A DNA stretch of 63,781 nt, filler included, from Phoronis australis (GCA_002633005.1; 5 parts of 5 records of this genome joined end to end with filler, not necessarily neighbours in it), one strand, 5' to 3'; numbered from the whole stretch's first letter, positions 21,667 through 62,321 are shown. The notes: generated from the letters alone by a model not told the origin. Translations and numbers: made by a program.

Positions 21667-21766
21667 NNNNNNNNNNNNNNNNNNNNNNNNNNNNNNNNNN
21701 NNNNNNNNNNTTAATTAATTAANNNNNNNNNNNNNNNNNNNNNNNNNNNNNNNNNNNNNNNNNNNN
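21667..21766. other. Assembly gap with artificial TTAATTAATTAA spacer
   Basis: N44-TTAATTAATTAA-N44, same layout at four places. Confidence 0.97.
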
Positions 21767-22197: not shown

Positions 22198-25100
22198 CTA
22201 CTGACCTTTGACCTGATGTCCTCCAATGACCTCATTCAGCACATCAGTGATGTTCTCAGCTTTGGCTGCATCAAGCTGTTTTTGGTACCGTTTGGCCAAC
22301 TCTGCCGTCTCCATGTCCTGAAACAAAGAGGTAAACAGGAGTTTTAGCTCAACCATGCATAGGAATTTTGTGTGATTTTTAAATATTTTCAAAGAGGAGT
22401 AAGGTTGATATGCGACTCTAAATTCGAGGCGTCAAGAACTGTGCCAAAGATGGTCCAGCTATGGAAAATGTCCCTACCAAAGCTTCCGCTAGTCTTGCAG
22501 TATGCCTAGCTGCCAGTTCATCTCGCATCTTTCTCTTGGCATCTGCAGCCACTCGATTTCGCTTCTTCTGAATTTCCTGCTTCTTTTTGTGAAGAGCAGC
22601 TTTTCTTACGGCTGCTTCAATACCTGACGGGAATAGAGTGCAAAAGAAATTACATAATTAAAACCAGGCAGGAAATACTAAAAAATTGGACAAATGACTG
22701 GTGAAATCCACTTGAACTCTTCTCACCGTACTAGTATAAGGTACTAGATAATACAGACATAAAGTGTCACTTTCTGATTATTGAAACTTCTTTACTTGTC
22801 TCAATCATGAAAATGAAAAAATATTCTCAAGCAGAGATTTAAATGCACTTTGAGTCAGAGTGCAAAATATATAAGAACATGTGGAACTACAATGGCACGA
22901 AATCAAGGCTAGAAAAGTGGTCCACAGATATTGCAGCATTGCAAGTAAATAAGGATTCGAATGTCGCTGTGTAATCTGAGACAGCCCTACTGCCACTGCT
23001 TGTAAAGGGGGATGCAGACAATAACCAACTATGCTATTTCTTGGTCATATCTTACCTGTCAACTCATCTCGTGATGACCAGACATTAGCTTTCTTAAGGC
23101 CACCAGTTTTATCCCTCTTTTTTAAATTTTCAATATTCGAAGTTTTCTGATTTCCATTGCTTCCAGATTTCATCGTTTGACAGATCAACTGCTGAGAGGA
23201 CTTTGTTTTCTTAGTCCCCACGTGAGATTTCGACTCATTCAACCTTTTCCCATTATCACGCGACATCACTTTTCTGCAATCAATTTTGTCAGACGGCTTG
23301 GCACACGCTCTTGGTGTGATTTTGCCTTTCACTCGGGCCGTCAAAATCTGCATATTAAGATCCTCCCCGCGTAGTTCTGAGATTGCAAACAGAAGCTTGC
23401 TTATCGAACCAACTGCAGTCACTCCCATACTCTTAAGCTGTTCTTCAGACAAAAGCTTGACAGTTTCTAAATCCAGCTCGTGGTCAGCAAACATCTTGAT
23501 GTACTTCTCGACATTACCTAGGTGTAATGTTCGTAGCCACGCCGCAACCTCTGGGTCGCCGTGGCTACAACCTTTGCCTTCTGACCTCTGCCACAAAGGA
23601 GGCACAGCTATACTCCCCGGTGATATATTCTCCTCTGCCTGTTCTGCCTGCTCAACAACACACATCTTTTCCCTGGAAATGCCAACAGCAGGAATGTCCT
23701 CCCCACATTCCATACCACCAGAAACAAAACTATCCTGTCCCATAATGGCAAGTGAATCTCCTGCATGACCACGCCCTTGTAGGCCAACTGTACCACCTGC
23801 ATTCGGCTGTTTATCCAAGCCAATCTCTTTGGCCAACTTTTCAAAGATTCTTTTCTTCTTAGAAGCAACACGCTCAGTTTCAGAAGTCAGTGTTGATCCC
23901 TTGTTCCACGGATGGCAACTATTCGTTTTGTCATATTTTGCGGAAACCTTCCACTTTTTAGTACCACTGAAGTGTTGTAATGTTGGATCTGAAAATTAAG
24001 AACAAAAAGTTAACTTTAATAATATACAACTCAGATAAGACATTACTGTGATCACTTTCTAGACAGTTCAGAAGGTGCTTCATGACAATCTATATGCGGC
24101 AAACAAAAAACATTGTTCTAACAAAATTTATTTAATGGTCAATCTAAAACTTTTCGATAAGTGACAAGATATTGCCAATGCTCATCCTAGTACATATTTT
24201 TTTCAAAAAAAAAAAAATAACCAAGTTTACTAATCAATATACACATAAGCATGTATCTTTTACTTTCATTTTTAAGTACAGAATTTAATAAAACAACAAA
24301 TACACATCAGTCATCCCTATTTCTGATTTTAGTTTGTGAGCGAGGTACACAAAAACTGTCAGGACGGCAAGACTTTGCTTAACAAAGTATACGGTCCTGT
24401 GTATGTCATAATATTCATCTGATAATATTCAAATATTGATCAATAGAATGATTTGCTATTTTGCCTCAGACATACACCGAAAATCTGGATGCCAGTGCTC
24501 TAACAAGAAACACAATTCAAACACAACAACCTGAATTACAAATTTTTATTACAACTTCATAAACTAAACTAGCCTGTTATTCCACAAGATTGCTAACATG
24601 GCGAAATCTAACCAATTTCCGACAAAAGTAACAGTCAAAAGTAGGCCTGCCCTTTCTTCATTTTCAAGGTCATCTAGCATTGTTGCAAATGCACAAAATT
24701 TTTCAAAGTATTTTCTGATGATGGTAATGGTACAGAACTTATTTCATGCTTCATACTTTTGACGAAAAAATGAGAAAATTTCACTTGTCTGCCATATCGT
24801 GTCCTGAATTGGTGAGATTTTACCGTAGTCATATTATACCGCACTTGCTTATTATACCTGATCACAAATCAGAAGAACCTTCCTTTTCGAAAAAATGCAA
24901 ATCAATTCATGATCAACAACTCACCATGGGTGCTGCCTCCTGGCGACAGTTGTTTTACTGAGTTGTACCCCAACAGTTTACCAGTCGCCCCATGTTCCCA
25001 GTGTGAACCACCAATTTCCTGCCTGAAACAAATAATCTAAGATCTCATTTCAAGCAACTTCAAAGTTACAATCAAAAGCAAGAAATGTGTGAATAGATCA

Positions 25101-26394
25101 AAAAGGTAGAGTTAACAGATTAGTCATACCAAAATGACTAACAAACATGTAAGTAAACAAAGCAAAAATGCATGATCCATAATCAATTTAAATGTTTCAA
25201 TAATGAAGGTTTGAGGCTAGCTAACAGTCTCAGAACATTATAAATGACATTCCATGGTTTAGAATTCCCACTCTCACAGTTATGACGGACCTTATTTCTA
25301 ATATTAAGCCCGATTATCTAGCCAAGTGGCTAAAAAACTACACATTTTCTGAAACTAGAAAGTCTGTAGAATGTGATCTTTGACTTCATACCAATCACAT
25401 AATTTGGTCATGTGACCATGTCTTTTTAGTAAAACTGATAAGAAAAGAAAGGCACATTATCAGTATCAATAACATGATCAATTTTACATATATATGCTAC
25501 AGTTTTCCAAAACAACATTTCGTTTTATGCAACTTAAGACGTTTTCATAAAAATCCTAAAGTCTCTGCAAGCAAAACTGGAAATAGAGCATAAAACCTAG
25601 CATGTGAAAATCTAATATAATAACCATTTGTGAGACATGATGTTCCAAAGTTAGCCAAACTGGACGTTTTTCGAGTGTCCCACATAACTGTACGGAACAT
25701 TTTCCATGCTAAATCGTACAAAACGGTAATTCTTCATAACCCTTCTCAAATTTTTGCCTCACAAAATGTCTCACGTATCTCATATTATTTACATCAACCA
25801 CAACTGCGATCAGTTTCAATATAATAATCAACCTTCCCCTTTCATTTACCGCACAGCTATTTTTATCAACAGTTTGAGTTTCTCACCAATGCAATTCTTT
25901 TAACACAAACATTACATTCTTCCAATTCTTTTCTCATGAACCTTTGTTTAGTTGTAGCTAGACAAAGAATGCCAAGACAGATTTTCTTCATATAGAGAAA
26001 GCATGCACCACACAACCTAAATTGAAGCAAGAGCAACTGACGTGTCCTCCTTTCAGAGTGAAAAGAACAGCAGTTCAGGAGTAGCGAACCATGTCCACAA
26101 GAACAGATTTGAGGAACATGAGAAAACAAATCTACCTTTTGAGAACAGAATTGTGTTCATGATAATACAGGTGAAATGCTTCAGATGCCTTTAAGGCTAA
26201 TTTCGTGCATTGTAAGAACACCTGTGCAGACCATGAAGGAGCAAGACTGTGTCCTTGATGGTCTTGATGGTTACCTGAGTAGACCTCGCACACCTGTCTG
26301 GTCAGTGGTGACCTCACTGCGTAGCTGCAAAGCCTCTTCCAGCTTCTCTACATCTCTCTGAAGCTTTATGTTCTCTTCTGTGAACTGTTTTAAC
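22198..26394 (-). CDS. Coiled-coil / SAM-domain protein, 5' end unresolved; exons 26394..26276, 25022..24925, 23988..23056, 22623..22478, 22317..22198
   Basis: Five exons join in frame with GT-AG sites (phases 2,1,1,0). SAM domain: EVAAWLRTLHLGNVEKYIKMFADHELDLETVKLLSEEQLKSMGVTAVGSISKLLFAISEL. Charged helical segments on both sides (EENIKLQRDVEKLEEAL; KKKQEIQKKRNRVAADAKRKMRDELAAR). The last exon may instead splice on at AAAG|gtcagt. Confidence 0.8.
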
Positions 26395-26744
26395 CTGCAA
26401 ACAAGCATTGAAAGATTAAAATGACTGAGATGACTGTAGTAATTGTCGAGACAAATCAATTCCCAACCAGGAATCAGATATCATTTTAATTAAATAATGA
26501 ACACAGTGGTCATTAAACTTGAAACGAGTTGAGCCTGGATCGACATGGCTGAGTGCGAGTTAGGCAGGATAAGGCCAGAGTCAGGGACTACAACAAAACA
26601 GCTAGAGGCCAGATAGCAACCAGACAGTGACCACCATCTCTAGCTGGCTCGGTAGCGACGGTGTAGCTCCATAGACATTTTTCGGCAAAACATGGCTCAC
26701 ACTGACTAAGCCACCAAGTCGTGTTGTTATAAATACCCTGTGCA

Positions 26745-27066
26745 CATAGAGGGACACCTTAGGAGGCCGCCGATGTCTTTAATTCCTTCAAACACAAACA
26801 AGCATATCCTTATCAAACTTTTTCTTTGAGCTTTTGAGCAGTCCCTCGTTCAGTTCCCAAAATCAGTAACTGCCATTTTTACACGGCGCACGCCAGGGAA
26901 TATGACATCATACCACCGGCAATAGGCATTGTTAAAATTGTCCAGTTAACGATTTTGTTAATTGAATGAAGGACTTCTACTCCTCGAAGAAAGTTTGGTA
27001 ACAGGAGTATTTGTTTGGATTAGGAGAAATTAAAGACATCGACTGCCTCCAAGGTGTCCCTCTATG
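26745..27066. mobile_element. MITE with ~50-bp imperfect terminal inverted repeats
   Basis: CATAGAGGGACACCTT..GATGTCTTTAATT pairs with AATTAAAGACATC..AAGGTGTCCCTCTATG. Confidence 0.75.
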
Positions 27067-27599
27067 CAAATAAGATATCTATAAAAACGTGACTTTAATG
27101 TTTTAGTCAGTGCGTGATATAATTTGCAGAAAAGCTTCCAGCGTATGAAGCTGCTACAGGAGCTACACCGTCTTTATTTTGGAAGTCGGCCATTTTGTTT
27201 TTGGATGGGTCATTTTCAATCATTTCAATGTCCCAAGTTCCATTTCCAAAATTTTTATTAGTTAAACTCCACATTCTTAAGCCACCAAAAGTAAAGTAAC
27301 AGATTCTCAAATAAACGTTCTAAACGTACAATAAATGAGTCTGACCTCTCTGCCCACTAAAGTGTGAAATTCCACCTTTGAATGAAGGTCCAGGTTCAAA
27401 AACCTGAGAAAAGTTATCATACAATTCCAACTTCTTTCCATTTCAAAAACAAAATGAAAAATATTTGCATGCCTTTCTTGCACCTTGGTTGTTATAGAAG
27501 TCATATTAAAGAACACTGCAACTTAATACACCAAGCATATGGTGTTTTAAAATACTTGAATTTATGAACCACGATAACCACGTTCAACTTGGCCGCCAT

Positions 27600-28055
27600 T
27601 GAGGAATTCATGAACTTCTTGGTTTCCGTGCACAGGAGAGTTACATTCAATATATTCTTGTACAATAAATTGATGAATATTGGTAATAATAATAATATAG
27701 GATCTATTTAAAATTCAATGTGGAAACTTTGAATGTCAATCTTACGATACCATCAGTGAAAACGTTATATTTGTACTATACAACTCACATCCGGGAAATT
27801 ATTCAAGGCTGTGTTCCACAATTGCATGAGCTATCAAACAATATTACATCTCGCAAAATTTTGCGAGACTTTGACATACATTTACAGATAAACACGTGAT
27901 CAGATAAAAATTTCTCGCGAGTGTCGTGGGTCTTCGGATCTCATACCATGTGTAAACGTTGCCGAGGCACCGACAACTTTTATCTCTTCATCTCTCGTTC
28001 AATCTCAAGCGGTTCAGGATGCACTGTACTAGTTCTTGTTCAACTGGAATTTGCA
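27600..28055. promoter_or_regulatory. Probable bidirectional promoter between the SAM gene and the CBM-TIR gene
   Basis: Divergent gene orientation; palindrome TCTCGCAAAATTTTGCGAGA at 27850..27869 and TCTCGCGAGT at 27913 (one mismatch to the TCTCGCGAGA promoter motif). Confidence 0.4.
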
Positions 28056-31000
28056 ATGACTGAAACTGTCAATATAATCAAAAATCCTGACTTCGACGAG
28101 TGGGATGGATCATCCTTCTTGTCGTGGTACGGATTTGGATGGTGTGAATTGCGGCGCGGGACAAAATGTCAAGGAAAGAAGTCGTGTGAAGCAATCAACC
28201 GTAAACATGTGTATTCGGGCATGGCGCAGGATTTGGCTGATTCTTTGGAGCTCGGTATTGCTATTTTGAGTTGTTGATTGTAATCAGAAAATTGTAAAAT
28301 ATGCATCTGTTTTGTTACTTTCACATTTTAAAGTTATTCAATCAAGGAGCGAGGGGAAAGCCAGGGAGAGAAATGATAGCATTGGTACAAAGCCGTATAC
28401 GACATTCTTCATTCATAGTTCATACAGCTAGCTGGCTGGCAATAGGAGAGAGAATGCGTGCGGGCAGGTATACATGTATGTCCATGCACGAGGTGAAGCT
28501 AAGGTGGATGTATAGGCCTACTCTACATCGTCAGATCATGAGTACATGTCACTTAGATGGACTACTTTTGATGACCAAAATTCGTAAGGGTACCTTTTAT
28601 GCAATTCCCTGAAACCGATCCTGCTTTGAATCGCATTAAACATTCTTCAAAAAAGTTCCTTTTCCTACCTATCAGATTCTTAGTATAGTCACTGCATGTT
28701 TGCATAAATGTATTTGTCTCTTTTTGAATGTACAAAAGAGTTGGGACTTTCACGAAAATTTAGGTGTTTCGGGAATGGAAATCTACAGAATGGTCAGGAT
28801 TTTTTCAGGGAAACCCTATACAAAAGATTCCGGTTCAAATGCATGTAGAAGGCTACCCAGCCCTAATTTTCCAGCAGCACCCTTGGTCACTAACGTACCC
28901 CAGGGAGGGATGGTACACTTACCGTATATAAATACAATATCAGAGCATGTGGAAATGAAGTCTTTAACGAGAGTGGGCCAGTCGTTTGAGCTTTGAGAGA
29001 GCCAGGTTTAAACCCTGGCATAATTACTATCATAATTGCACAAACGCGTCTTTTTAATTCTCTGAGATTGGACTCTGGTGGATGTATGCTAGGAAGAGAA
29101 CATGAACCTGGAATTTGGAAGTGATTTCTAGAGTTATGGTCATATTTAAAAAATAGAACACAGATTTTTAGATGACACTGAAGCTGAGCAAAACATAAAA
29201 AGTGGGATTTTTCTGTGCATTAGCATTTTTTTTGCAAGAATGTTACCAACTAAAAAGTAGGATTGGATTTTATAGCAAAGACTCTATTAATAATAACATG
29301 AAGCCGTCCTAGAAAGATATCAGAAAGTCAATGAGGACTTGTCATTTAAAATTGAAACAAAAATCAACCGCCAATCACTAACTGATATTCTGATATCTGT
29401 GTTCAATTTAAAACTTATTTAATAAATCTGTGCTGTGAACTTAATTGTCACTTTTGTTGTCAATTTCAGGCAATCGCTATGAATTTTCGTCTCTTGTCAA
29501 ACTGTCACCGACGGCAAATGAGGACAGAAGTGAAGTTGTCCGGCTTCAGTTCCAGTACAAGCTGTCTGACCAGTCAGAAATATGTTATTTGAAAATTGCA
29601 GAGAAGTAAGGCTTCTGCTGTGAATATTCTTTAATTTGTAATACTGTTCATTTGGGATGCCGGCCTGAAGTTTTCTGAACCATGAAGTTGAATGTGTAAG
29701 GAATTTTTTTAGAGTTGAAGCCCCAGCACTAACTTTGAAAACTATTGTCTTTGCTCTGTTTTGGAGTGGAACAATGTAATTTTTGTTTTTCTTAGCCTAG
29801 AGTAACTGCTAAAATGTTCCTATTACGTGATAAAACTATGCATGGACCAATTGAAATCCACTGATTGCTTCATTTGGAAATTCTACTGCTGAAAACTAGA
29901 TTTACTTAAGTTTGTGTCTTTAGCCTCATATTTTATTAAAGGAATATGAGGGATTTAAGGCAGCTGAATAAATTTTGATTGAAACCATTCATGAAATTGA
30001 TCTCAAATTTGAACTGATTTGAGGGCTTTGAACAAACTGACAGTTCATTATTGCTTGAGATGAGGCTCCACAAGTTGGCTTGTCATTTTATGCATCTACC
30101 ATGGCCTTAAGGAATAACAAACTGTCAGGTATTTGCAAACCCAGCAACCACTTAAAATTTGAATATCAATGTCATAACGGTTACTAGTCTAAATCAAAAA
30201 TTCACTTCTTGGATCAGGAACACCTCGCCGTTGGGCTTGCTTTTAATAATGGCACCTCGTTTGGTTAAAGGTCACGAAAAAATGTCCTTGCTTGTAATAT
30301 TCAATCAAAATCATCTGGCAGGTACTATGATGCTTGCGCTTTGCATTTAATTTTCATAAAATTCGTAAGTAATTTTAAATAGAGGTAAATAACGTTTGTT
30401 GCATTTTTCACAATAGTGCACATCAGATTTTCTAAGCTTGTTTGATTTTAGGTAAATTCAGTGGGTAGTTTTAACATTCATCTTATAGGAATTTGAATGC
30501 AATAGACTGGCGGAAACTCAGCGGCACTATTTCGCTGCCCCATGCAGGACCAGACTGCAGGCTGGAGTCTGCCATCTTACATTTTGGCAGTCCGTGTGTT
30601 GAGACAAACTTCATGGTGGCTTGTACGAATCTGACGTTAGTGCCAAGTAAGTAAAGGAGGCAGAGGCAATTTCTAATGCGTGGCTCATTATTCATCCATT
30701 GGACACAGTGTCTGGCAGAGAAGTGAATCTTCTTTACCCTAAATTTCTCACTAATTTTAAGAATTTTCTGCTTCTACTAGTGTTCTTCATGGAGATTGCA
30801 TTGCACTGCTATTACTATACTACACTTGTCTAATTAGTTGCAAAGTAATGAACCTTTAGAAAATAGAAAAGCTGCAATTTTGTTGGTAGTAGTTCTGTGC
30901 TAAGTCATTGAGTTTGCAAAATGCAAAATCTCACTTTAAGGTTATGTAGGACCTTTTTCACAAACCTGCACATTTAGCCAAATATCTACAAAACTACTAC

Positions 31001-34000
31001 TCAATAAAAGTATTATTTTCCGAGAGTAGAAGGCTTGTAGAATTTGATTTTTGACTTAATAACATCAGTCTGCCATTTTAAAATACTAAAATTGAAATTG
31101 TCTTTTAAGTAATATTGAACAAAAAGGAAGGTACATCCTTAGCAAAACAATGTTATCAGATAAAAGAAGGACAGTTTTTGATAGCCCTCAATTTTGTGAA
31201 AGTGGAAAATGTTAGAACAATGCACTAAAAGCATAATTATCTATCCCGGTTGCATGACACGGTCCCAAATAGGGACTCAACTAAGTTTCTTAAATCTGCT
31301 ACATATTTGTGGGCTTTTGAAAACATTGATTGTCCTTTCTTATGCGGTTTGAGTATCATTACTCAGAAAATTTTGGCTTTGATACAAATCGAGAGTGAAC
31401 TCCGCATTGAATTCTTGATATTATTGATTATAAGTACTGGGATCTTTTCATGCAAAGCCCCAAATTTAAGAACTAAGTTCTTAATTATTTTGACTGAATT
31501 AAGGGCTCCATTTTTAGTTACCGTAATCGTTCGGGTTAACGCCCTGGGCGGTTAAATTGGCGAACCCAAAAAATCGGGGGTGGGCGGTTAACCAGACATG
31601 GGCGCTTAAACGTGAAATTTCAAGAAATCGGGGGGGGGGCGGTTAACTGAACATGGGCGCTTATTACGACAGGCAACCGCCCTGGGCGGTTAATCTTACC
31701 TTATGATCTGAGTCACCACACGTACTAAGCCACATACTGGGATCGCCTAACACTTTGAAAAGAACTTTATCGCCACCAAGTGCGTACTCTGCGCACTCTA
31801 ATTAACAAATAGTTTCGAAAATGTAGAGTGTGGTCAAACTCCGAACGCTTGCATAGAAAGTTTGCTACATAATATGGCGCCTCAGGTGAGACCGATTATT
31901 GCGAATTATGCTCATTANTACAATAATTTGTTACTGGTATCATAATTCACATTGCTAAACCGCGGTCTCTGAGGCCGTCGTTGCACTCAATGTTATCATC
32001 GATCTTAATCTAAAAGGTCGGGGATTCGCGTTTCCTATTAGCACAGGGCGGTAATCACCAATCGGCAAAAGTAGGGGATGGGCGGTTAACCGAGCAGTGG
32101 GCGGTTAATTGGAAATCTTCAAAAATAGCAGGGGGGCGGTTAACCGAGCAGTGGGCGGTTAAATCGAAATTCACCTAAAGTAGGGGGTGGGCGGTTAACT
32201 GAGCATGGGCGTTAACCCGAACGATTACGGTATATTGTTAGAAAATGTCATTGGTTAAAGAGGAGCTCATAATAAAGATGAAATTATAAAAATATTATAT
32301 CTGTTAGTGAATTACGCAACAGATATGCAAAAGATTTAGAGAATTTATTTGAGTCCCTGTTTGGGACTGTTTCATGCGACCGGACACTGCTGAAAATTTC
32401 ATATGAATCCGATCAGCTGTTACGAAGTTTGCCAAATTTTGTCTTACATGTAACCTTTAATACAGATTTTACATTGATATAGTAATGCCTTTGATGCAAT
32501 TTTTACTACATTCATTTATGCAAGGTCTTTTTATTGACGTTTTTTTTAGAAGTCACTGATGTTTCCACCAATTTGATCAGGAATCCAAATTTCGAGGTGA
32601 CAGAAAATCACGTGCCAGTATTTTGGGAACCATTCGGTAATGTGAAGTTCAAGGCTGGAGTGTTGCTTCACAATGGAACGGCATCTTGTCAAACGTACCA
32701 ACGACACGCACTGTGGAGTGGAGTGGGACAAAATCTCTTGTATGAAGTTAAATTAGGTAAACAGTGTTGTATATAATGTAGTAGGAACTTGTTAAATATG
32801 TATTGTCAAGGGTCTGTATGGGGTAGAGATAATATCTCTGGTTTGAAGTTAAATTTGTGTAAATAATGTTGGATAAAAAATTGGTTTTAACTTGTCATAC
32901 ACATTCAACAAAATACTGTGGGGATCAGAGTGGGCCAGGATCTCTGAAGTTATATTTCACAAAACTTTGTCTGGTGGTAGTATGGTTTGGAACTTAGGAA
33001 TGATAAAGCTTTATTTGGTGCTAGTTATCTTTTATGAAAAAGTGTACCATATTGTCCTAAATTAGTGGAATGTTGCGATAAATGCTACAGTTAACTGCAG
33101 AATGATTCGTGATTGGTATTGGGTGTTCTGATTTTTATTACTTTGCAGTATTATTGTGCAATATAACTGAGCAGTATTACTGAGCAGTATAAACTGCTGT
33201 ATTTCTGTGCAATAATAACTGTGCAGTGTTGATGTGCAACATTAACGTGCAGTATTAGTGTATGGTATTACTGTACAGTTAACAACCAGGACCTTTTCAT
33301 TGACAATAAATTTTTGTTCAAGAGTGAACTTCCTTCAAATTCCGGCGTGGTTATATAGTTGACTGTAGGCATTGACCTAAATGGATATGGAAGTCCTGCC
33401 AGGGTACTGTCCTCAATACAGTGTTTGATCCTTGATCTACTGTACCTTGACAATGAAAAAACAAAACTCAGTACATATACAAAATGAAATCACCATGGAA
33501 TACAGGCACCATATATCAGTGCTCTCTCAGTAATCAATAATGTACTGTGATTATTTTGATTACACATGCTCCCAGTGACTGAATTTAGTTTGTTTCATTT
33601 TTAGTGTTTGCTTTCAGGTGTAAATAAGTTGACTATTTATAAGCACTACCTATACAAAACACCTTTATATGACTCTCTAGAGATGACAAGAAGTTACCCA
33701 TACCAAGCTTGGTTGTAATTAAAGCCATGATTTAAAGTATGTAGCTGTGAAATAGCATATTCATTTTTTTCTTCAATTTCCAAAAATATGATTTTGTATG
33801 AGATGTTAAAATTAATGCCTGAAGTATGTAATGTGAACATACTAAATCAAGTTTGTCACTCTCCTAGTAACCTTCTTGGATTTCCCAAACAAAGACTGTT
33901 TTCTTAATTGAAGACCTTAAACAAGATAATGTTGACTTAGAAAACATGAAGTGTTTACCTGAAACTGCCTTCTTTTCATAGGCTTACCTTCAGTAAAATG

Positions 34001-37000
34001 TATTAGCTGTTCTGCCAGTGTTAATTTTCCACTGGAAAGAATTCAGCACTGACAATCAGATCAGTATGTGCACTGACTTTTCACTACCTGCGACTCCAGA
34101 TTTATCATTTTCTTCTCTAAACCAATTGATTTAACATCAAGTCAACATTCTTGACTTGGAGGACTTCAAGTTTGAAATAACGAAGGCATCACATTTACCT
34201 CACCTTTGAATTGTTGTTCATTTAGTCTGAAAGGTTTGATAGCTTTATGGTGTGCTGGTGAAGAAAATGATGTCAAACCTATAAGAAATACTCCGTGATT
34301 TATAATAAAACTATTGGTATTACTAGGATTTTTGTTATTATTTTCAAAATCATTATTTGTAGCGTTAATACTACTACTGTTACTGCTACTACTTTTATTA
34401 TTATTATTATTATTGTTGTTGTTTTATTGTTATGTTTGTGGGATATTTTGCATTGGGATATTTGTTGCAGTGTCTTCAAAGTAACTTGAATAAATAATTA
34501 TATAGTTTTTCTTACTTTAGGTTGTTTCCCTCAAACTTGACATGTGGCTCCTATCTCTGTCTTCCTACAGGTCACCGGTACAAGTTTTCTGCAGTGGTAC
34601 GACTAACAGATGATAATGAGTCATCTGAGAAACATCGCATATGCTGTACATTGAAGTTAAAATTACAGAACGAAAAAGACGAGCGATACCAGTTATTTGC
34701 ACTTGTAGAGTAAGTGAGATTAAAATTCCACTTTGTTCTTAAATCCCTCAAGAGACGTAGATGGTGCTGACTGTTGTCCACCAAATATTCTGTTACAAAT
34801 CCTTTTCATTATGTCACCGCTATACTGAGAAACGCAGAAACTGTAACAACCATCGAGGGATAACGCTGCTATCAATACCAGGGAAAGTATTTAGTAGGAT
34901 AATCTTACAACGAATCAAGTTCAAGGTAGATGAAAAACTTAGGGACCAACAAGCGGGTTTCAGGAAAGGCAGATCTTGCTCCGATCAGATAGCAACGTTA
35001 AGAATCATCCTCGAACAATCCATGGAATGGAACTCTCCCCTATTGATCAATTTTGTGGACTTTGAAAAGGCATTTGACAGCATTGACAGAAGCACGTTAT
35101 GGAAGGTCATGCGCCATTATGGCATCCCAGAAAAGATAGTGACACTGGTCAAAAACATGTACGAAGGAAGTAACTGCCGTGTTCTTCATGACGGTGAAAT
35201 GACAGACCCATTTGAAATTAGAACAGTAGTGAAGCAAGGCTGTCTTCTGTCACCTTTTCTTTTCAACCTAGTAATAGACTAGACAATGAGAGAGGTGACA
35301 ACAGGCAGAAGAAATGGAATACAGTGGAACATATAGACACAGCTGGATGACCTGGACTACGCAAATGACATCGCACTACTCTCTCACACAGCAGGCCAAA
35401 TGCGAAGGAAAACAGATGAACTGGACAAAACAGCATGGAAGATTGGCCTTGTCGTCAACAGTGGAAAGACAAAAATTCTTAACTTAACCCCAGAGACAGA
35501 AACACCAATTGAAATAAATGGATCAATCCTGGAGGAAGTTGAACATTTCACATACCTTGGCAGCGAGATAGATAAAAACGGGGGAACAAAGCTGACATAC
35601 GAGCAAGAATTGCCAAAGCCAGAACTGCATTGTACCAACTAATGAAAGTACGGAAAGCTAGGAAACTCGCTGAAACCAAAATTGAGATTCTTCAACTCAA
35701 ACGTGAAATCAGTACTGTTATATGGTCAGAGACCTGGACAAAACTAAAACAAACTTAAGAGACTGCAAACTTTTGTCAATTCATGCCTGAGAAAAATTTT
35801 GAGGATACAGTGGCCAGAAAGGATAAGAAATGAAGAATTGTGGGAAAGAACAGGACAGACACTAGTGGAAGAGGAGATCGGCTGAAGGAAATGGCACTGG
35901 ATTGGACATACACTAAGAAGACCAACAAGTAGCACTACCTTCCAGACATGCATTAAAGTGGAACCCACAGGGTAAACAAAATAGAGGCAGACCACGAATG
36001 ACCTGGAGAAGATGCATCACCGATGACATGGAGATGTTAGGATACTCATGGAAACAGCTAGAAGGAATTGCCCAGGACAGAACAAAATGGAAATCTCTGA
36101 TTCGTGGCCTATACCCTGGTAGGGGTGACGGGCATTGATGATGATACTGAGAAACAGCCAATTGGAATGGTAACTTTAAGGAAGAGTAGTGTTTTGCTTG
36201 TTTTAAAAACTTGATGATGATAGGTTTTTTAAAGTCAAGCTACATGGAACAAAGTTTCCCCCATTTTGATAATTATTTTAATTACTTTTCTAACACATTT
36301 GCTTACCAGAAGTAGCAAAGGTAGTGAACTATTACTCAACCTTTTAACCTCATCAACAGCAATGTAACTTCTGCTGATTGGTCAGAACTCAAAGGTCAAC
36401 TGAACATGCCCTTGGGAGCAGACGGCTCACTCCTGGAAACTGCCTTCATGTACTTTGACGGTCCTCCACATGATGTCAACTTTGTCATTGCTTCTGTCTG
36501 TCTTCATGATGTGACGCCCCCTGGTGTCAGACAGCAGTGTAAGTATACTGTTAAAGCCTATCTTGAACCGGAACACCTGTAAATTTAGTTCGTACAGTAT
36601 GTTAAAAGCATCGCTTTGTGTCTACTAGTGCCATCAATTGCAAAATGTAAGGAAATGTTAGGCGTATTGGCTTACTTTTGTCTACGTCACCGCGAGAATC
36701 ACCTTTTAATTCAAACAGCTGCAAATAACACCCGCACGCAATCGTGTTCAATTCAGACCCCTATTCGATACAACCATTATCAGCCTTTTGTTGTTTGTGC
36801 TGGGATCTTGCGGTGACGCAACTTGGCACGAAAAGGCAGCTTCACTTATCATTTGACGGGCTTACATTTGCGCGATTAAACTCGCGTTTTCTTATTTTAC
36901 TAAGGCTTTGCTAGGACTATCTGGTTAGCCCAATTTATCTAAAATAACAGAATTCTGTTGAAGTTAGCCTCTAACTGATCTGTAAGAAGTTGGCTACATC

Positions 37001-39578
37001 TGAATCGCTTTCTAGTCATTCATGATGTGTGGTTTCTACGTCAAAACTGAGGCATCATGGGTTTGCATGTTGTAACAGTCATATTTTCATGGCTTAAATG
37101 ACAGTAATATGGATGGCTGATAAAGTGGTTCGGTGCCCTCTATCAGCGTGCTCCCAAGAGGCAAGATAAGTGAGTCACTCTAAGAGCACCATCAGGTACC
37201 ATTACATGTAGTTATATCAACAAGTGTAGTGTCCGGTGGGATAAATCTATGCTCCCACGAAAATCTTATTCAAAATTACCAGTATTTTATGACCAGGCTG
37301 CACAGAAATGAAAATAGTGCATTTGTTGTGGTTTCTATTTTTTTACAAACCAGTCTTATAGCTTTGATAAAACCTGAAGTGTTAGTTTACAAATACTACT
37401 TTGACATAATCTTAAACTTCATTCCATATAGTCAAACCTACTGTGTCTATTTCAAAGGTTATCTCTGTGTAGTTATCTCTGCATTCAGACTGCCCTACTT
37501 ACGGGCTTGCAAGCACCTTCATATAATCCTGCAGACCAGCATTGTAAAATTTTTTACAGATTTTCAGATCCAGTGGACAGGTGCTGTTTATGCTAACTTG
37601 TTCCTATCCTTTTATTGTAGTGGAGGCGAATGAAATAATGAGAAAAAACACTGCGAAGTCATGCACAGATACTTTGAAGCCTGCTGAGTCATACCCAGTA
37701 GTCTATTTGTCATATCACCAGTCAGCACAAAACAGGGTAAGCTCAAGATGTGACTGATGCCATTGTTATAGAGATTCTGAGCTATTATCACTGTTATATG
37801 CCGTTTTGCGAGATAGACATCTATTTTCTGCCTAAATTCAAAACTTGCAAAGAACAAGTGAATAATATGCAGATGCACACACCCTTGCCTTGGACACAAA
37901 TAATGGATGTTGTGTTCAAATTCAGAAGAAAATGTCAAAAGTTTTTGGACTGACAAAACGTTCCAGAAGTTCCTGTCGCGACAGCTGGATGAGAGACGAG
38001 TTCTTTGTCAGAGTAGTCTCCCCTGATGACCGAGAATGAAGGGGAATTAAAGGGAAAGTTAATAAGGTGGCTTAATTATTCTGCAGTTAGAGTTTTGCTG
38101 CGGCTAGTGGTCATAACTGGTCATTTTTGTTGTTTAAGGAATTGGCCATTTTGACGGGAAACTGGTCTGATTACTTTCAGCGTAAGGAAACACTGTAGCA
38201 GAGTGGTTGGAGCTCCGAACTCCTGCTTAGGAGAACTGAGTTCAAGTCCTGGCTTCATGGGCTGACACTCGAGCATTGCACAAAGATGCCTCTGAGCTTG
38301 GTCTTGCTTGTGAATGTATGTAAGGGTGTGAATGAGAACCTGGATATAATGTGAAAGGAATTTCTGGGGTTGTGCTCATATTTATTTTTTTTGTTACTTT
38401 CATCTGTCTTGAACTGTAAGTTGAGGTTAGATGTCTGAAAGCAGTTTTCTTCACCTATGGCCCTGTTGACAAAGTAAACTTGCGAAGGATAAACCCCAGA
38501 TACAATTGATAAGTACAGTAATCTGGTTGTGTTGACCAGGTGGAGGAAATGAAAAAGCGGCTGGTTCACGCTGGAGTGAGAGTGATAGATGTCCATCGTA
38601 CACGGAGTGGACAAGACCTGACAGGTGCCATTGGAGATGGGATAGAAAAGGCCAAGGTGGGGATCAAGTTGTAAAGAAATATTGTGCATAATATTTGATT
38701 ATTAGTTTTGTTGATGAAACTGTTTAATTTCAGTATCAGTTTTAGGTCAGTAGAGCCTCTCCGTGGTTACTTTCAAATTCGTATCGGGGATTCTGCCAGC
38801 AAGCATTGTTCAGGCTTCTCTACTTTAATGGTCAGTTTTTAGGACAGACTTAACTGATTCACGAGTCCTGTGAGTTTACCAAATTACAAAACAATATTTT
38901 AAAGTTGTTTTGTTTCTTTTAAAAATGTTTCTGTTCCCAAACGTTAGCATAAATGTGATGCCTTTAAAAAGTTAGAAATACCTGTCCATTATGACATAAA
39001 TATGCTGGCTGCAATAAACTTCATTTGACAACTTTGAGTACAATGTTTTTAGTGAATGTTTTTGTTGCTGCATTGCATGCTTGAATTTCATTAAGAAGTT
39101 GTTTTTAATGTCCATTATTTTGTGAAAAGGTACAGACTTTAGGTGCATTCATCAGCAATCAGGGTTAACACAAGTTTTGTTCTTCAAGTTTTGATTATTC
39201 TACCAGTTAATTTAACAACTTAAGAAGGAATCTATATTTTGTATTTTGTCCTATTTTGCTATTTTTCATTTTTTTATTTGAAAAAATGTAATACTGGCTT
39301 TACATTTTCCAATCATATTTCCGAAATAACCATTTTAGGTCGTTATCAGTTGTGTGACCGGGAAACATTGCACAGATGAGATTCACCAAGGGGAGATAAC
39401 TCTTGCTCACCTGCAACAAGTGCCAATATGTCCAGTATTGCTGGAACCAATGTCATGGCCACCCAAGTGTTCAGTGATGAAGATTTACGAGAGACTGCGC
39501 TTCCTGGACTTTGCTACACAACACAGCATTACGCAAGAAATGCTAGAAAGGTTACTCGCTGGTATAAAAAGTGCATAG
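28056..39578 (+). CDS. Tandem CBM4/9(CBM22)-like carbohydrate-binding modules + TIR (TIR_2-type) protein, 496 aa; exons 28056..28254, 29470..29605, 30489..30646, 32550..32756, 34571..34709, 36360..36538, 37621..37736, 38540..38656, 39339..39578
   Basis: Nine exons total 1491 nt, all introns GT-AG, phases 1,2,1,1,2,1,0,0, no internal stop. CBM1: NIIKNPDFDE..NRKHVYSGMAQDL..GNRYEFSSLVKL..DWRKLSGTI. CBM2: NLIRNPNFE..QRHALWSGVGQNL..GHRYKFSAVVRL..DWSELKGQL..MYFDGPP. TIR: VVYLSYHQ..VEEMKKRLVHAGVRV..SGQDLTGAIGDGIEKAKVVISCVTGKHCTDEIHQGEITLA..PICPVLLEPMSWPP..LRFLDF. Confidence 0.88.
31521..32230. mobile_element. Tc1/mariner(pogo)-type MITE in intron 3 of the CBM-TIR gene
   Basis: Perfect 24-bp TIR CCGTAATCGTTCGGGTTAACGCCC / GGGCGTTAACCCGAACGATTACGG flanked by TA on both sides; repeated subterminal GGGCGGTTAA. 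Confidence 0.9.
33140..33275. repeat. Short degenerate minisatellite (TGxGCAGTATTAC-like)
   Basis: Repeated GCAGTATTA / GTGCAATATAACTG units. Confidence 0.6.
34834..36143 (+). mobile_element. 5'-truncated RTE-clade LINE in intron 5 of the CBM-TIR gene
   Basis: RT motifs NHRGITLLSIPGKVF, QAGFRKGRSCSDQI, FVDFEKAFDS, VKQGCLLSPFLF, LDYAND; (TGA)n tail; 12-bp target-site duplication ATACTGAGAAAC at 34822..34833 and 36144..36155; internal stops and frameshifts. Confidence 0.93.
38188..38345 (+). mobile_element. Degenerate tRNA-derived SINE-like head in intron 7
   Basis: A-box-like TAGCAGAGTGG and B-box-like GAGTTCAAGTC at tRNA-like spacing; no cloverleaf. Confidence 0.45.
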
Positions 39579-42366
39579 ACCAGCGATGCATTCTGTAACA
39601 CTACATCAGACACTCAGGCGACACCTGTTGTGAGAAATTTCAGTTGTGGAACAGAAACTGTGAATTTTCTCCCATAATTCAACATTTCAGCCTTGTGGTT
39701 CAGTCACTTCAGTGGCGGCCGTTTTGCTAGTCTATGTTTAGATCTCAAGCTTACTTTGTAAAACACTCGCATGAGTTTGCATGATCTTACTCTACGAAAT
39801 GTTCCATAACATTCTGCCACTAGTAGAACATTCCTTGTGTAGAGGCTGATGTCGTAAAAATTATGAATAGGCTCAGAATGTGTGACATCACCTCAATGGG
39901 ACGTCTTCCATCTTGGTTCTCATTGTTATCATCGATTTAGTTAATACGGTATCCTGAATGGTTCACAAATGCTGTACCCAAGTTGAAAAATTCTTTCAGT
40001 AAAATCAAATTTTGCCTTTTTTGCCTAAGCTGTTCGGAATTTTTGATTATTGTTCGGGTTTTATGCCAAATTAATTCGCAAAACACAAGGCATTTTTTTA
40101 AAAAAACAGTGGTACGCAAAAACTAGGCATTTTAAAGCAAAATTCTAACAGCGTTTTTGAGACATAATGTAAAGTTTTCATTTAAAAAACTTTTTAGTAA
40201 AATCGGCTGAGGAGTTATTTTGCTATGAATGTAGTTTTCTTCCACATGAAAAATTGACTTAGGAAACATGGTTACATGACAATAATGAAGATGCAATAGT
40301 AAAAAGCATATTTTTATTACCCTCTATCTTTCTCGTTTCAGAAAATATATACTTTTAATGATTGACAAAGTATAGTTTTTTTTTGATATTTGACTTTAAA
40401 TTGAAGTCATTTATTAAAGTCCTAGATAACTTCAATCTACGTCATTTTATAATAATAATAATGGGAGTGTGACATAATCACTGTCTTTCGTTTACCGTGG
40501 CTGCATTCCATAGAGCAAGTTACTTGCAACAAAATTGTGTTCATACAAGAGCAGGCAGGACAATTCCAGTGAAACAGTGAGGAAGTGCAGAGGACGAGCA
40601 TAGTGCGTGCCGATGAAGTGATTGGTTAGCGAGGCTAAAACGTAGCATTATGAAACAAAATTCACTGTTTTCATTCCATAAGTGAGGACGTCGGCACAAG
40701 TGACTTGTGAGTGTCTTGCATCTTTCAACATAGTCCAAAAGTTGTGGCACATTAATTTTGAAGGCATGGTGGGTCTCCTCTTTATACTGGGTGATGTAGA
40801 ACACGCTTTTGAGTGAATAAGTTATATGAAATTGCTTTCAAATATTTTAGTTGGAATGTTGGTCCATAAAGGTTCAGTGTACACTTGGCGTTGCTTTGCA
40901 AGAGCATTATGTTTCGTTAATGCGTTAGATTTAATCTGATTGTAACTGTGCTAATGTACTCTATATTCTGTTATCATCGTTGATGATTTATGGGTAAACA
41001 GGGATTTTTTCTTGTACTATTTTTAATAACATTTATAGGAGATGTGATTTTGGTGCCACTGTCTTGCTTTTCTGGCATATTGTTGCTTTTGTGTCCCAAA
41101 AATGTATTTTTGTGATTATTGTTGGATGGGTTAGACTTTTCAATGTTATTAGATTTGACCAGAGCTGTAAAACAACATGCTGTATAGTGTTTTTGTGATT
41201 TTGTTACAAGTTGTCAGTTATCGTGGTGATTTGCCAGACATTTGCTGAAATCAATGTCAGTGTCTTTACTATTTAAATAGACTTAAAGTACTATGAACAT
41301 GTGGGATTTGGCCGTAGAGTGTTCAGCTGCTGCTGCTGCTTTAGTGGGTCCGATTCCGCGCCACTTCTAATTACTATAAAGTTTACGTTTCTTGCTGAGA
41401 ATGTGCCTTTACGTGGTCAGTTATTTGGCACTGACAGGCATAATTGCACACACTGCTGCATGCATACTATGTAATGCTGTGTAAAGGAACTGGAACTCCT
41501 GTTATCAAAGTTTTAGCTAAGACGTCGAAGTGTTTTATGAAAGTAATTTATGACTTTAGACTGAATACTGGTCCTTAACATTACCACTTCACAAGTGCTG
41601 ACGTCTTGTTTCAGTATAACAAGGAATCAAAAAGTTGTTGTAAACTTGATCACATCTCTATAATCACACTTTACCAAACATTTTCATAAACCTGTTCCAA
41701 TGAAGTGAGTGGCAGTGAAAACCAAGGATAAGACTTTTTATTAATTATTAAAAGGACCGTAAGTCAACAGACTATCAGTGCTGTCTTTGAAATTTGAACT
41801 CTTGGTCACTTTGTTCGGAGGCACACGTTCTATTGCTATTTAAAAACGTCATTGTTTGCTGAAAAGGATCGCAGTTGTTGCGGATGTTATATCTGACTTT
41901 CACAAGAGTATCATTGACATTTTGCCCTTTTTGGGCACTTGCATATATACGTGTATATTTATATGTATTCTGATTGTATTATTTCTTTACTATTTTTAAT
42001 GTGCTTTAGCATTTATTTTAATTTGAAAATTTACCAGGGTAGTCTATCTATTACGCATTTAGCACTATTTATTAATGCACTGTGTTTCTACGCATTTTAA
42101 TATACAAAAACAACTAATATACATGATTGTAATTCATTGCTTCCATATTTTGTAAATTTTACTTGTTTTTGAGGCTGAGATTCCATTTTGGCTGTACTTT
42201 AAGAGGTATGTGTTTTAATTTTTCTTGTCAGTAATATTTAAATGGCATTTCTTTAGGTAGTTGTAATTTTCTATATGCTATACCAAAATTTTCCAATTGT
42301 AATAAAATTTTGCAAATTTCGTATTGGTTCTTTAATTTATATGTTTATGTTCACCCTACATACAAA

Positions 42367-43224: not shown

Positions 43225-43324
43225 NNNNNNNNNNNNNNNNNNNNNNNNNNNNNNNNNNNNNNNNNNNNTTAATTAATTAANNNNNNNNNNNNNNNNNNNN
43301 NNNNNNNNNNNNNNNNNNNNNNNN
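43225..43324. other. Assembly gap with artificial spacer
   Basis: N run with central TTAATTAATTAA. Confidence 0.97.
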
Positions 43325-56820: not shown

Positions 56821-58572
56821 TATTTGATAAAGGTTTATCCAACGTGTAAGTGGACCAAAATAATTGACCAACGGTACAAGTCTTTCATGATTTTGTAACG
56901 GACAGAAACGAGTGTTTTACCGGAAATAAAACCCTGTTAGCATCGCATTAAATAAATGTGATCGTTCCTGTCAAATGCACTCAGAAATGAAGTGAATGTG
57001 ACCCCTATTCGCGGTTGAGCTTTTACAGTCAAGGTAGTAAAAAGTTCTGTTATGGATTTTCAGTACCTATGGCCAGAGTGTCATCACCCCCATCCCCTGT
57101 TTTCATAATACTCGCCAAGCTCGTTCACTAAGTTTTCGTAACTGTCAAAATATATATGTACATATGCTGTAAATTGATTAACGTCTTCAACTGTTGACAT
57201 TATGTGGAGGGAAACCAAAATTAATTATGTTTTCTTTCATATTCCAAATTCTTTTAGATTTCCCAAAATAAGTGTTTATTATTTTATGCTATAAAATTGT
57301 TATAGATGGTCTAAAAGCAAAAAGTGCAAAGACCCATTGTTTGCAAAAAGGACTACTTTCCTTAAAGGTATGGGTTAATGTACTTTTTCCTTAGGTAAGA
57401 GGTAATTCTGTAATTACTTTGGGAAAATACAAGAAATTGTTGATTAGTCACTTGACCCGCTTTGCTCATATATTCCTGGTGTAGCAAATGTGACAGCGCA
57501 AATTGCGCGTTTGTGTCGTTAGCGCAATTACAACGCTTACGCTGGACGCGCGTCCCGTAAAAGCAGCAAACAATTTTGAACTTTGGCAAATGTTCACCTG
57601 TTGAAAACTGGAAAACTGATTTTTACTACGTGGTTAACACGTTTGGATAGATATAATATGCATAGTTACTGGAAGACTCCATGATTTTAACCGCTGAAAC
57701 TTTAGGTTACACACCTATTTGGACAGTCGGCATAATGAAATCCCAGCCTTTTTAAAGAGATAGAGCGACTGTAAGGTACATGTACATGTATGATGTAGCA
57801 TGGGTCGTGAGAAGAGTGAAAAAGACGTTTTCACTATGACAATACTTTATTGACAATTGACTTTCTCCAGTCTACTAACGATATGTACCAATGCCAATAC
57901 GTCGGATAACGTGCACACGAGTCACATTTCACAAAGTTTAACCTGTTTTTCACAACTTATGCGCTAATCAATTCTAGCAAATTCGGTCATATAAGGTAAA
58001 TGCAGCTGCAGAGAGCACCAGAAATGCTGAACAAACTGATATGTTACATCTCCTTTTTAAAAATATGAAAAAACACTAAACATAAACTGACAATTACTAA
58101 ACACGTTAAACAAACACTCACGCAAATTTCACTCAACAGACAATTAACAAACCGTTAAATCATCTAAGCATTATAACAATTTCACCTTAAGAACACTTTC
58201 ATTTCAACTACGCAAAGATAACTGACTTTCACGTTGCGTCGTAAATCTACTCAGGACTCGGTATCTAAAATTTCTACTCGATCTTTAAGTTATTTTTGAC
58301 ATTTTCAAGACTTTTCCAAACTCAAGATGATTGTCATATTATTCTGTGCTCGCGCCAGTACATTATGATTCACTCAATGATAACACCATAAAAACTGTTA
58401 ATCCCAGTATGCAATCAAAATCTCGATTTTTTCTCGCAATTAATCAAATTTCTAGTTGATTTAGTTGGGGCCATCAAGCGCGAACTGGCATAAAAATCTC
58501 AATCATGTAAACCATAAAGTAACTGGATACAGAATAACAACAATACGGTAGACACGAGCAGTGGGCCAACAG

Positions 58573-59605
58573 AAACTGTAAACGAGAATCTGGTGGGCTC
58601 GATATGGATAGACCAGTACCATGTGCAAACGAGAAACTGGTGGGCACGAGTGATAGACCAGTACAAAGTGCAAACGAGAAACTGGTTGGCACGAGCGATA
58701 AACCAGTTCAAAGTGCAAAAGAGAAACTGGTGGGCACGAGTGATAGACTAGTACAAAGTGCAAACGAGAAACTGATTGGCACGAGTGATAGACCCGTACA
58801 AACTGCAAACGAGAAACTGGTGGGCATGAGTGATAGACTAGAAAAAAGTGCAAACGAGAAACTGGTTGGCACGAGTGATAGACTAGTAAAAAGTGCAAAC
58901 GAGAAACTGGTTGGCACGAGTGATAGATCACTACAAAGTGCAAACGAGAAACTGGTGGGCACGAGTGATAGATTAGTAAAAAGTGCAAACGAGAGGCTGG
59001 TTGGCACGAGTGATAGACCAGTACAAAGTGCAAAAGAAGGAACTGGTGGGCGCGAGTGATAGACTAGTACAAAATGCAAACGAGTAACTGGTTGGCAAGA
59101 GTGATAGACCAGTAAGAATGCAAACAAGATACTGGTGGGCACGAGTGATAGACTAGTAAAAAGTGCAAACGAGAAACTGCTTGGCACGAGTGATCAACCA
59201 GTACAAAGTGAAAAAGAGAAACTGGTGGGCACCAGTGATAGACTAGTAAAAAGTGCAAACAAGAAACTGGTGGGCACGAGTGATAGACTAGTAGAAAGTA
59301 CAAACGAGAAACTGGTTAGCACGAGTGATAGATCCCTACAAAGTGCAAACGAGAAACTGGTGGGCACGAGTGATAGACTAGTACAAAGTGCAAACGAGTA
59401 AGTGGTTGGCACGAGTGATAGACCAGTAAAAATGCAAACAAGAAATTGGTGGGCACGAGTGATAGACCATTACAAAGTGCAATCAAGAAACTGGTGGGCA
59501 CGAGTGATAGACCAGTACAAAGTGCAAACGAGAAACTGGTGGGCACGAGTGATAGACCAGTACAAAGTGCAAACAAGAAACTGGTGGGCACGAGTGATAG
59601 ACCAG
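58573..59605. repeat. 45-bp tandem minisatellite, ~23 copies, runs into a gap
   Basis: Unit GAGAAACTGGTGGGCACGAGTGATAGACCAGTACAAAGTGCAAAC. Confidence 0.97.
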
Positions 59606-59705
59606 NNNNNNNNNNNNNNNNNNNNNNNNNNNNNNNNNNNNNNNNNNNNTTAATTAATTAANNNNNNNNNNNNNNNNNNNNNNNNNNNNNNNNNNNNNNN
59701 NNNNN
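59606..59705. other. Assembly gap with artificial spacer
   Basis: N run with central TTAATTAATTAA. Confidence 0.97.
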
Positions 59706-60461
59706 GTGTATACATCATACTAAGTGAGTCAGTGTGTATACATCATACTAAGTGAGTCAGTGTGTATACATCACACTAAGTGAGTCAGTGTGCACACATC
59801 ATACTAAGTAAGTCAGTGTGCACACATCACACTAAGTAAGTCAGTTTGTATACATCATACTCAGTGAGTCAGTGTGTATACATCATACTAAGTGAGTCAG
59901 TGTGCATACATCATACTAAGTAAGTCAGTGTGCATACATCATACTAAGTGAGTCAGTGCGTATACATCAAACTAAGTGACTCAGTGTTTATACATCATAC
60001 TAAGTGAGTCAGTGTGCATACATCATACTAAGTGAGTCAGTGAGTATATATCATACTAAGTGAGTCAATGTGTAAACCTCATACTAAGTGAGTCAGTGTG
60101 TATACTACACACTAAGAGAGTCAGTGTGTATACATCATACTAAGTGGGTAAGTGTGTATACATCATACTAAGTGAGTCAGTGTGTATACATCATACTAAG
60201 TGAGTCAGTGAGTATATATCATACTAAGTGAGTCAATGTGTAAACCTCATACTAAGTGAGTCAGTNTGTGTATACTACATACTAAGAGAGTCAGTGTGTA
60301 TACATCATACTAAGTGGGTAAGTGTGCATACATCATACTAAGTAAGTCAGTGTGTATACATCATACTAAGTAAGTCAGTGTGTATACATCACACTAAGTG
60401 AGTCAGTGTGTATACATCATACTAAGTGAGTCAGTGTGCATACATCATACTAAGTAAGTCA
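59706..60461. repeat. 28-bp tandem minisatellite, ~27 copies
   Basis: Unit GTGTATACATCATACTAAGTGAGTCAGT. Confidence 0.97.
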
Positions 60462-62221: not shown

Positions 62222-62321
62222 NNNNNNNNNNNNNNNNNNNNNNNNNNNNNNNNNNNNNNNNNNNNTTAATTAATTAANNNNNNNNNNNNNNNNNNNNNNN
62301 NNNNNNNNNNNNNNNNNNNNN
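62222..62321. other. Assembly gap with artificial spacer
   Basis: N run with central TTAATTAATTAA. Confidence 0.97.

Follow-up and report, generated by a model that had tools for sequence, protein, structure and literature searches.

Pairings of a TIR domain with a carbohydrate-binding domain have apparently been described only loosely, and in plants, the nearest case being Arabidopsis PP2-A5 (AtPP2-A5), a defence-linked protein in which a TIR is joined to a beta-sandwich carbohydrate-binding domain (PMC12355970, on work by Santamaria et al. 2019). Here we describe a real and apparently undescribed gene in a 63,781-nucleotide (nt) stretch of DNA from Phoronis australis (GCA_002633005.1; the whole stretch is called the window below), whose nine exons between positions 28056 and 39578 very probably encode a single protein made of two carbohydrate-binding modules (CBMs) of the CBM22 type, a linker and a TIR domain. 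As far as the account in PMC12355970 goes, AtPP2-A5 is like this CBM-TIR protein also in that TIR catalysis and sugar binding are uncharacterised in both. It differs in being a plant protein, in having its TIR at the N-terminus and in carrying one PP2 lectin domain instead of two CBM22-type modules. The two proteins are most likely independent assemblies.

The counterparts of the modules themselves are the CBM22 tandems of bacterial xylanases (Paenibacillus Xyn10C, 4XUP; Clostridium Xyn10B/XynY, 1DYO), which are also tandem and N-terminal, match the same profile and share with the second module of the CBM-TIR protein the Trp, Tyr, Tyr and acidic positions of the cleft. However, they are secreted and sit on a catalytic domain of glycoside hydrolase (GH) family 10 or 30, whereas the CBM-TIR gene encodes neither a signal peptide nor a glycosidase, has introns and carries a TIR as its output domain. 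SARM1/TIR-1 and the catalytic animal TIRs that do not belong to Toll-like receptors (TLRs) are intracellular, with an N-terminal regulatory module and a C-terminal TIR bearing a glutamate, the layout predicted here. Unlike SARM1/TIR-1, the CBM-TIR protein has neither ARM nor SAM (no Pfam match on any of the nine exons, and no room in 496 amino acids [aa]), and unlike SARM1-type and other non-TLR catalytic TIRs it is missing the aromatic residue four positions before the glutamate. TLRs and interleukin-1 receptors (IL-1R) have a signal peptide, a leucine-rich repeat or immunoglobulin ectodomain and a membrane helix, none of which is found here. Since each defining feature of TLRs, SARM1 and xylanases that was looked for is absent, the protein is none of these. 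A precedent for the role proposed for its CBMs comes from FBXO2/Fbs1 (by its FBA domain) and the galectins, which read cytosol-exposed glycans through cytosolic beta-sandwich domains, the output being ubiquitination or autophagy; single-exon scans gave no FBA or F-box Pfam match at E up to 1. Among invertebrate proteins, the ecTIR-DC group comprises non-TLR TIRs that have diverse partner domains and in many cases no membrane helix, and the account of it, which allows a comparison by description only, shows no CBM-bearing class in its available part (Gerdol et al.; PMC6321704). The available main text of an animal-TIR study does not mention carbohydrate, CBM, lectin or glycan (bioRxiv 10.64898/2026.04.20.719644).

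Rebuilt from its coordinates (Table 1), the coding sequence has 1491 nt and gives 496 aa in an uninterrupted frame with a single terminal stop. All eight introns are of the GT..AG type, with phases 1,2,1,1,2,1,0,0, and the nine phase-compatible exons of the first-pass annotation were in this way recovered in full. The N-terminal repeats are 30% identical across 157 aa (E 7e-25). Exons 1-3 and exons 4-6 share one pattern of intron phases (1,2,1) and are similar in length (199/136/158 and 207/139/179 nt), and their junctions fall at matching positions of the repeat. Because phases, lengths and junction places match, the CBM pair is, to judge from the exons, an old duplicated three-exon block whose introns predate the duplication and whose copies have since diverged. 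Bacterial contamination and a recent bacterial transfer could be ruled out because this duplicated, intron-bearing block is old, and by the eight spliceosomal introns and the polymorphic RNA. Phase-1 introns flank module 2 and the TIR cassette opens at a phase-1 intron, boundaries that would be compatible with exon shuffling.

With single exons, Pfam gave sub-threshold matches to CBM_4_9 on exon 1 (E 0.009) and exon 4 (E 0.003) and to TIR_2 on exon 8 (E 0.06); four of the nine exons had no match, and exons 5 and 9 matched unrelated families weakly. Therefore, we built whole-domain profiles from bacterial sequences. A profile of 18 CBM domains, the non-redundant relatives kept from 132, scored 55.8 bits on aa 4-155 and 67.1 bits on aa 168-327, at full module length in both cases, while 2000 shuffles reached at most 6.3 bits; these scores lean slightly high because the seeds were drawn from a search whose query held exons of this gene. 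With an unbiased profile of 30 bacterial CBM_4_9 domains the repeats together reached 21.5 bits, and shuffles no more than 6.0. The nearest of the 30 bacterial seeds was the same for both repeats (L002; E 2e-11 against module 2), and it is through this seed that module 2 is linked to solved CBM22 structures, 4XUP (E 1e-11), 4XUO and 1DYO; searches of the PDB with exons 4 and 6 singly matched no CBM structure. The seed comes from a Bacteroidota-group protein (L002 1297-3246) in which a CBM22-type module at the N-terminus is combined with a GH30-type xylanase domain and whose gene adjoins a glycosidase-like open reading frame, and the bacterial relatives of the modules are carried on GH10/GH30 xylanases. 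By these profiles both repeats are confirmed as CBM22-type (Pfam CBM_4_9) modules, and the xylanase-type identity first proposed for them holds. No glycoside hydrolase domain was found in the window, where tblastn of five bacterial xylanases matched the CBM exons and one 25-aa stretch elsewhere (E 0.95). A xylanase gene with a nested TIR was accordingly discarded, no catalytic domain having been found.

For the ligand residues of CBM22-2 of Xyn10B we take R25, W53, Y103, Y136 and E138, with positions read from the 1DYO chain (Y103 by motif; a related entry has Ala at 138). By this list, module 2 has F193, W220, Y273, Y311 and D313 at these places, i.e., three identical residues, one conservative and one lost, and module 1 has F27, Y53, Y106, H143 and G145, with one identical, one conservative and three changed. 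To go by these positions, the cleft of module 2 looks like a working one and that of module 1 looks partly degenerate.

The C-terminal domain was recovered by a profile of 30 bacterial TIR_2 seeds, which gave 36.6 bits on aa 366-495 (at most 6.6 in 2000 shuffles). In the alignment E436 falls in the column of the catalytic helix C glutamate, a Glu in 27 of the 30 seeds, and S370, Y371, D395 and G402 agree with the seed consensus. Exon 9 taken alone came near ESM Atlas clusters with TIR_2 on 35% of their members (score 0.91), ranked behind three unnamed clusters, and found nothing relevant in the PDB. The top matches of the CBM and TIR profiles in the window are this gene's own exons, and the succession of two CBMs, linker and TIR that had been read from the sequence is borne out by scores far above those of shuffled controls. 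Because the domain is of the TIR_2 type with the catalytic Glu, an enzymatic output is a live reading: the TIR assignment of the first-pass annotation stood, but its TLR-like signalling role now has a rival in catalysis. An NAD-cleaving output would be at least as likely as a TLR-style adaptor role, and enzyme activity is plausible, although far from certain. Most non-TLR animal TIRs keep the catalytic Glu, and oligomerisation is the established trigger of TIR enzymes (bioRxiv 10.64898/2026.04.20.719644).

Expression was followed in three stranded RNA runs of one study (X1, X2 and X3, in which order values are given), each sampled to about a fifth; a fourth, small run, with contigs, added little. 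Sense depth was low across the CBM exons, the TIR exons and past the stop codon (exon 1, about 3.0/2.6/7.6; exon 2, about 1.1/1.3/2.8; exon 8, about 0.8/2.5/1.5), and X3 was the deepest run in six of the seven exon or untranslated region (UTR) bins compared, on the CBM and TIR sides alike. Reads crossed junctions 4-5 (0/2/6) and 5-6 (4/3/9). The nearest AATAAA 3' of the stop is at 42301. Of the 26 variants listed in the reads, five are exonic, four of these being synonymous and one T4A, a pattern that is weak evidence of constraint.

The protein lacks a signal peptide and a membrane helix, as had been noted at first: the highest hydropathy over 19 residues is 1.03, and the CBM and TIR profiles cover the whole protein except a 38-aa linker. 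Translation from an in-frame ATG at 27948 would lengthen the protein by 36 aa, but we take 28056 as the likely start. Sense depth was 0/0/0.2 at 27502-28002 and 1.5/1.3/3.83 in the following bin. A signal peptide hidden behind the upstream ATG was rejected on this near-zero depth and on the extension, which is hydrophobic only in a short run at its end. No GT[AG]AG donor exists on the forward strand at 26400-28055, and an extra 5' exon with a signal peptide is unlikely. We infer a cytosolic location. Just upstream of the likely transcription start, at 27840-27925, there are two palindromic sites of the TCTCGC..GCGAGA type, which resemble a known animal promoter motif.

We searched for relatives with single exons (66-79 aa) or exon alignments as queries and with word filters. 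Proteins with both domains numbered none of 29 among the longer candidates for exon 9, none of 71 for exons 1 and 4 together, and neither of the two matches of exon 4 against 1.84 billion representatives; of these two, a fish zf-BED repeat protein (P0001) was spurious and the other (P0002) is a bacterial-type glycosidase with multiple CBM_4_9. The exon-alignment search passed 181 of 4162 candidates, and among the 120 listed none had a TIR by Pfam or by the TIR profile and none a eukaryotic name. Metagenome scans gave both domains in 0 of 275 and 0 of 196 stretches, and the one of 111 that passed in a genome scan was a match of 24 residues, in a genome without a CBM_4_9 match. No animal relative of either the CBM or the TIR part was obtained from these exon-based searches. 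Because the queries were short exons or exon alignments, this negative result is weak; it suggests that the gene is lineage-restricted or evolves fast but does not imply uniqueness. The view that the architecture lacks a known precedent fared similarly: literature searches, a weak test with domain-architecture databases outside their scope, found no description of a CBM4/9/22-TIR fusion, but the plant AtPP2-A5 is a fusion of TIR and carbohydrate-binding domain (PMC12355970), and the CBM22-TIR architecture is possibly already listed and unstudied.

The mechanism that we put forward, tentatively and at somewhat less than even chances, is that of an intracellular protein in which glycan binding by the CBM22 pair leads to clustering of the TIR_2 domain and to cleavage of nicotinamide adenine dinucleotide (NAD+). 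Module 2 would bind a beta-linked sugar polymer in the cytosol, and the multivalent polymer would cluster several copies of the protein; the clustered TIRs would then assemble and cleave NAD+ via E436, yielding an ADP-ribose-type signal or a loss of NAD+. Module 1, with its cleft partly lost, might be a spacer, a brake or a site of second specificity. The likely ligand would be a microbial, algal or dietary beta-glycan entering the cytosol after vacuole damage or invasion. Non-TLR animal TIRs with the catalytic Glu can make cyclic ADP-ribose (cADPR), which is a calcium messenger in animals (bioRxiv 10.64898/2026.04.20.719644). The protein would then have an immune role.

To our knowledge, many invertebrate TIRs keep the NAD-cutting active site and some make cADPR, and we know of no established activating cue. 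The CBM-TIR protein brings a putative sensor for which solved structures allow a guess at the ligand class, and ligand, clustering and product could be addressed in one small recombinant protein. Going by its domains, this one intracellular protein would likely couple the binding of a sugar polymer to an NAD-cutting or adaptor signal. If true, animals would sense polysaccharides intracellularly by a module that originates from enzymes degrading such polymers, as a parallel to the plant TIR-lectins. A stronger formulation, which we consider doubtful, is that this would be the first intracellular receptor for polysaccharides in animals to be the signalling enzyme as well, with a xylanase-derived CBM22 pair, domesticated and anciently duplicated, exon-shuffled onto a catalytic TIR and with foreign beta-glycan in the cytosol as the direct trigger for making cADPR-type messengers or for NAD+ loss.

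Several considerations weigh against the proposed mechanism. In animals, a xylan-like polymer is no obvious ligand for a cytosolic protein, nothing in the present data ties the gene to infection, and the fusion is without a confirming homologue bearing both domains. Others concern the binding sites. Phe stands at the Arg25 position in both modules, and module 1 is also without equivalents of Tyr136 and Glu138, having H143 and G145 in their place. Fewer than half of the CBM22 members keep all five ligand residues and some of those without them have been proposed to act as stabilisers (PMC7151638), while in phage tail proteins folds resembling CBM22 lack the usual residues and probably serve to bind other sugars (PMC11269942). 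CBM22 folds of this kind may bind other targets or only stabilise, and because members so often lack the full set, some with other roles, the ligand is not readable from sequence. This leaves room for a protein whose CBM folds no longer bind sugar and serve instead in protein interaction or auto-inhibition, gating the TIR on a protein or small-molecule cue, and the modest identity shared by the two modules points the same way. We consider this rather unlikely: W220, Y273, Y311 and the acidic D313 are retained in module 2 at surface positions that would have no obvious folding role, and Phe at the Arg25 position is found also in the bacterial GH10-linked modules P0015 and P0051.

Other points against NAD+ cleavage lie in the TIR itself. 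I432, four residues before Glu436, stands where 24 of the 30 seeds have an aromatic (16 Trp, 8 Tyr), and its loss may weaken catalysis, although an aromatic at this position of catalytic TIRs is common and not universal. Of 61 Glu-bearing animal TIRs tried in E. coli, 12 showed activity, mostly as cADPR makers, and 49 did not; TLR2 and IL-1R9/10 keep the Glu and are inactive (bioRxiv 10.64898/2026.04.20.719644). The glycan-sensing fusion could therefore end in a TIR that is not an enzyme but a scaffold, recruiting other TIR proteins of MyD88 or SARM type or competing with them, which comes close to the view of the first-pass annotation. That reading is unlikely in our estimate, as Glu436 is retained together with the beta-A, BB-loop and Asp positions of the enzymatic TIR_2 seeds, neither a death domain nor any other adaptor module occurs in the protein, and the screen used isolated TIR domains, with missing oligomerisation named as a limit (bioRxiv 10.64898/2026.04.20.719644).

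The last point against our reading is that six of the eight junctions, including the CBM-to-TIR junction 6-7, are absent among the joints listed, where at least three reads in one run were required at exon depths of about 1-10 and one listing gave 15 of 36 joints. The splicing predicted at first is in this sense seen at two places, and because junction 6-7 is absent among the listed read junctions we count it as deduced from the gene model. Two adjacent transcripts could be imagined instead, one for a CBM-only cytosolic lectin (exons 1-6) and one, possibly opening with a non-coding exon up to the donor-like site at 37170, for a TIR-only protein from Met347. Animal proteins with a TIR alone are common (bioRxiv 10.64898/2026.04.20.719644), read-through of exon 6 gives 14 codons past the donor and then a stop, intron 6 has consensus-like donors at 36647, 36982 and 37170, and exon 8, with a depth of about 1.5 in X3, is below the nine reads on junction 5-6. 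However, exon 2, which lies inside module 1, shows a similar dip, and the interval between the two halves is silent. Depth was zero in 3 of 3 read runs at 37021-37521 and sense depth was zero at 36782-37212, therefore no 3' UTR or 5' exon is seen there; intron 6 contains no AATAAA and a single ATTAAA, within a repeat. The strong consensus donor of exon 6 is phase-matched to the pyrimidine-rich acceptor of exon 7, 1082 nt downstream, and the frame is open through the linker. Separate transcripts are thus improbable, and we hold with considerable confidence that CBM and TIR exons form one gene. A non-immune metabolic sensor, e.g., in gut cells, that would pass from dietary or stored polysaccharide to NAD+ or cADPR-calcium signalling is very improbable, since no glycosidase partner exists in the window and most TIR proteins act in immunity or degeneration, even though CBM22 relatives act in polysaccharide digestion, cADPR has the calcium role noted above and the low expression is present without a known challenge.

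Table 1. Exons of the CBM-TIR gene and associated features, in window coordinates.
Feature	Position	Strand	Content
Exon 1	28056..28254	+	aa 1-67: start codon, first third of CBM module 1; Y53 (CBM22 W53 position), F27 (R25 position)
Exon 2	29470..29605	+	aa 67-112: middle of CBM module 1; Y106 (Y103 position)
Exon 3	30489..30646	+	aa 112-165: end of CBM module 1; H143, G145 at CBM22 Tyr, Glu positions
Exon 4	32550..32756	+	aa 165-234: first third of CBM module 2; W220, F193
Exon 5	34571..34709	+	aa 234-280: middle of CBM module 2; Y273; both junctions in reads
Exon 6	36360..36538	+	aa 280-340: end of CBM module 2 (Y311, D313), linker start; GTAAGT consensus donor, phase 1
Exon 7	37621..37736	+	aa 340-378: linker and first TIR strand; phase-1 acceptor; internal Met347
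Exon 8	38540..38656	+	aa 379-417: TIR helix A to helix B; D395, BB-loop Gly402
Exon 9, coding part	39339..39578	+	aa 418-496: C-terminal TIR half, catalytic-position Glu436, stop codon
Likely long 3' UTR	39579..42320	+	sense reads as far as 41500, where the mapped stretch ends; end point inferred
Broken long interspersed element (LINE) reverse-transcriptase relic	34761..36138	+	intron 5; Pfam RVT_1 E 1.6e-22; removed by junction 5-6 splicing; outside the protein

Some further features were observed inside the introns. Intron 4 has sense reads (33500-34500, forward strand) in X1 and X3 at 98% likeness, partly on a repeat, and these may be pre-mRNA or an alternative end yielding a truncated CBM product. 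Intron 6 contains, at 37147-37169 on the forward strand, 23 nt between an AG and a consensus GTGAGT donor that, spliced after exon 6, would give an exact stop; it has zero read cover and is possibly a poison micro-exon or chance. Multicopy elements at 30930-32440, 36590-36940 and 38000-38360 have reads on both strands, and long terminal inverted repeats at 31519-32232 resemble those of miniature inverted-repeat transposable elements. A single N lies inside the gene, in intron 3. Assembly gaps at 21667-21766, 43225-43324, 59606-59705 and 62222-62321, none of them in the gene, are each written as 44 N, a 12-nt spacer and another 44 N.

Upstream, on the reverse strand, a multi-exon gene at 22204-26393 faces away from the CBM-TIR gene. 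One of its exons is coiled-coil-like (26294-26393) and another, 0.94 kb long, encodes a SAM domain (Pfam E 2e-12), the nearest structures being the SAM domains of Bicc1 and ANKS6, and a candidate start near 27600 would place the two genes head to head. Also on the reverse strand are a large exon at 2873-4000, with a synaptotagmin-type C2 domain (Pfam E 3e-13; synaptotagmin-1 in the PDB, E 6e-16) followed by a low-complexity tail, and a broken retroelement at 4285-6413 with an RNase H domain (Pfam E 1e-8) and reverse-transcriptase-like frames. The C2 exon, the LINE relics and the style of the gene would by themselves point to an intron-rich eukaryote, most likely an invertebrate animal. Towards the other end of the window, at 58540-60461, there are two tandem arrays; self-alignment offsets put their periods at about 45 and 28 nt, and the first has open frames on both strands.

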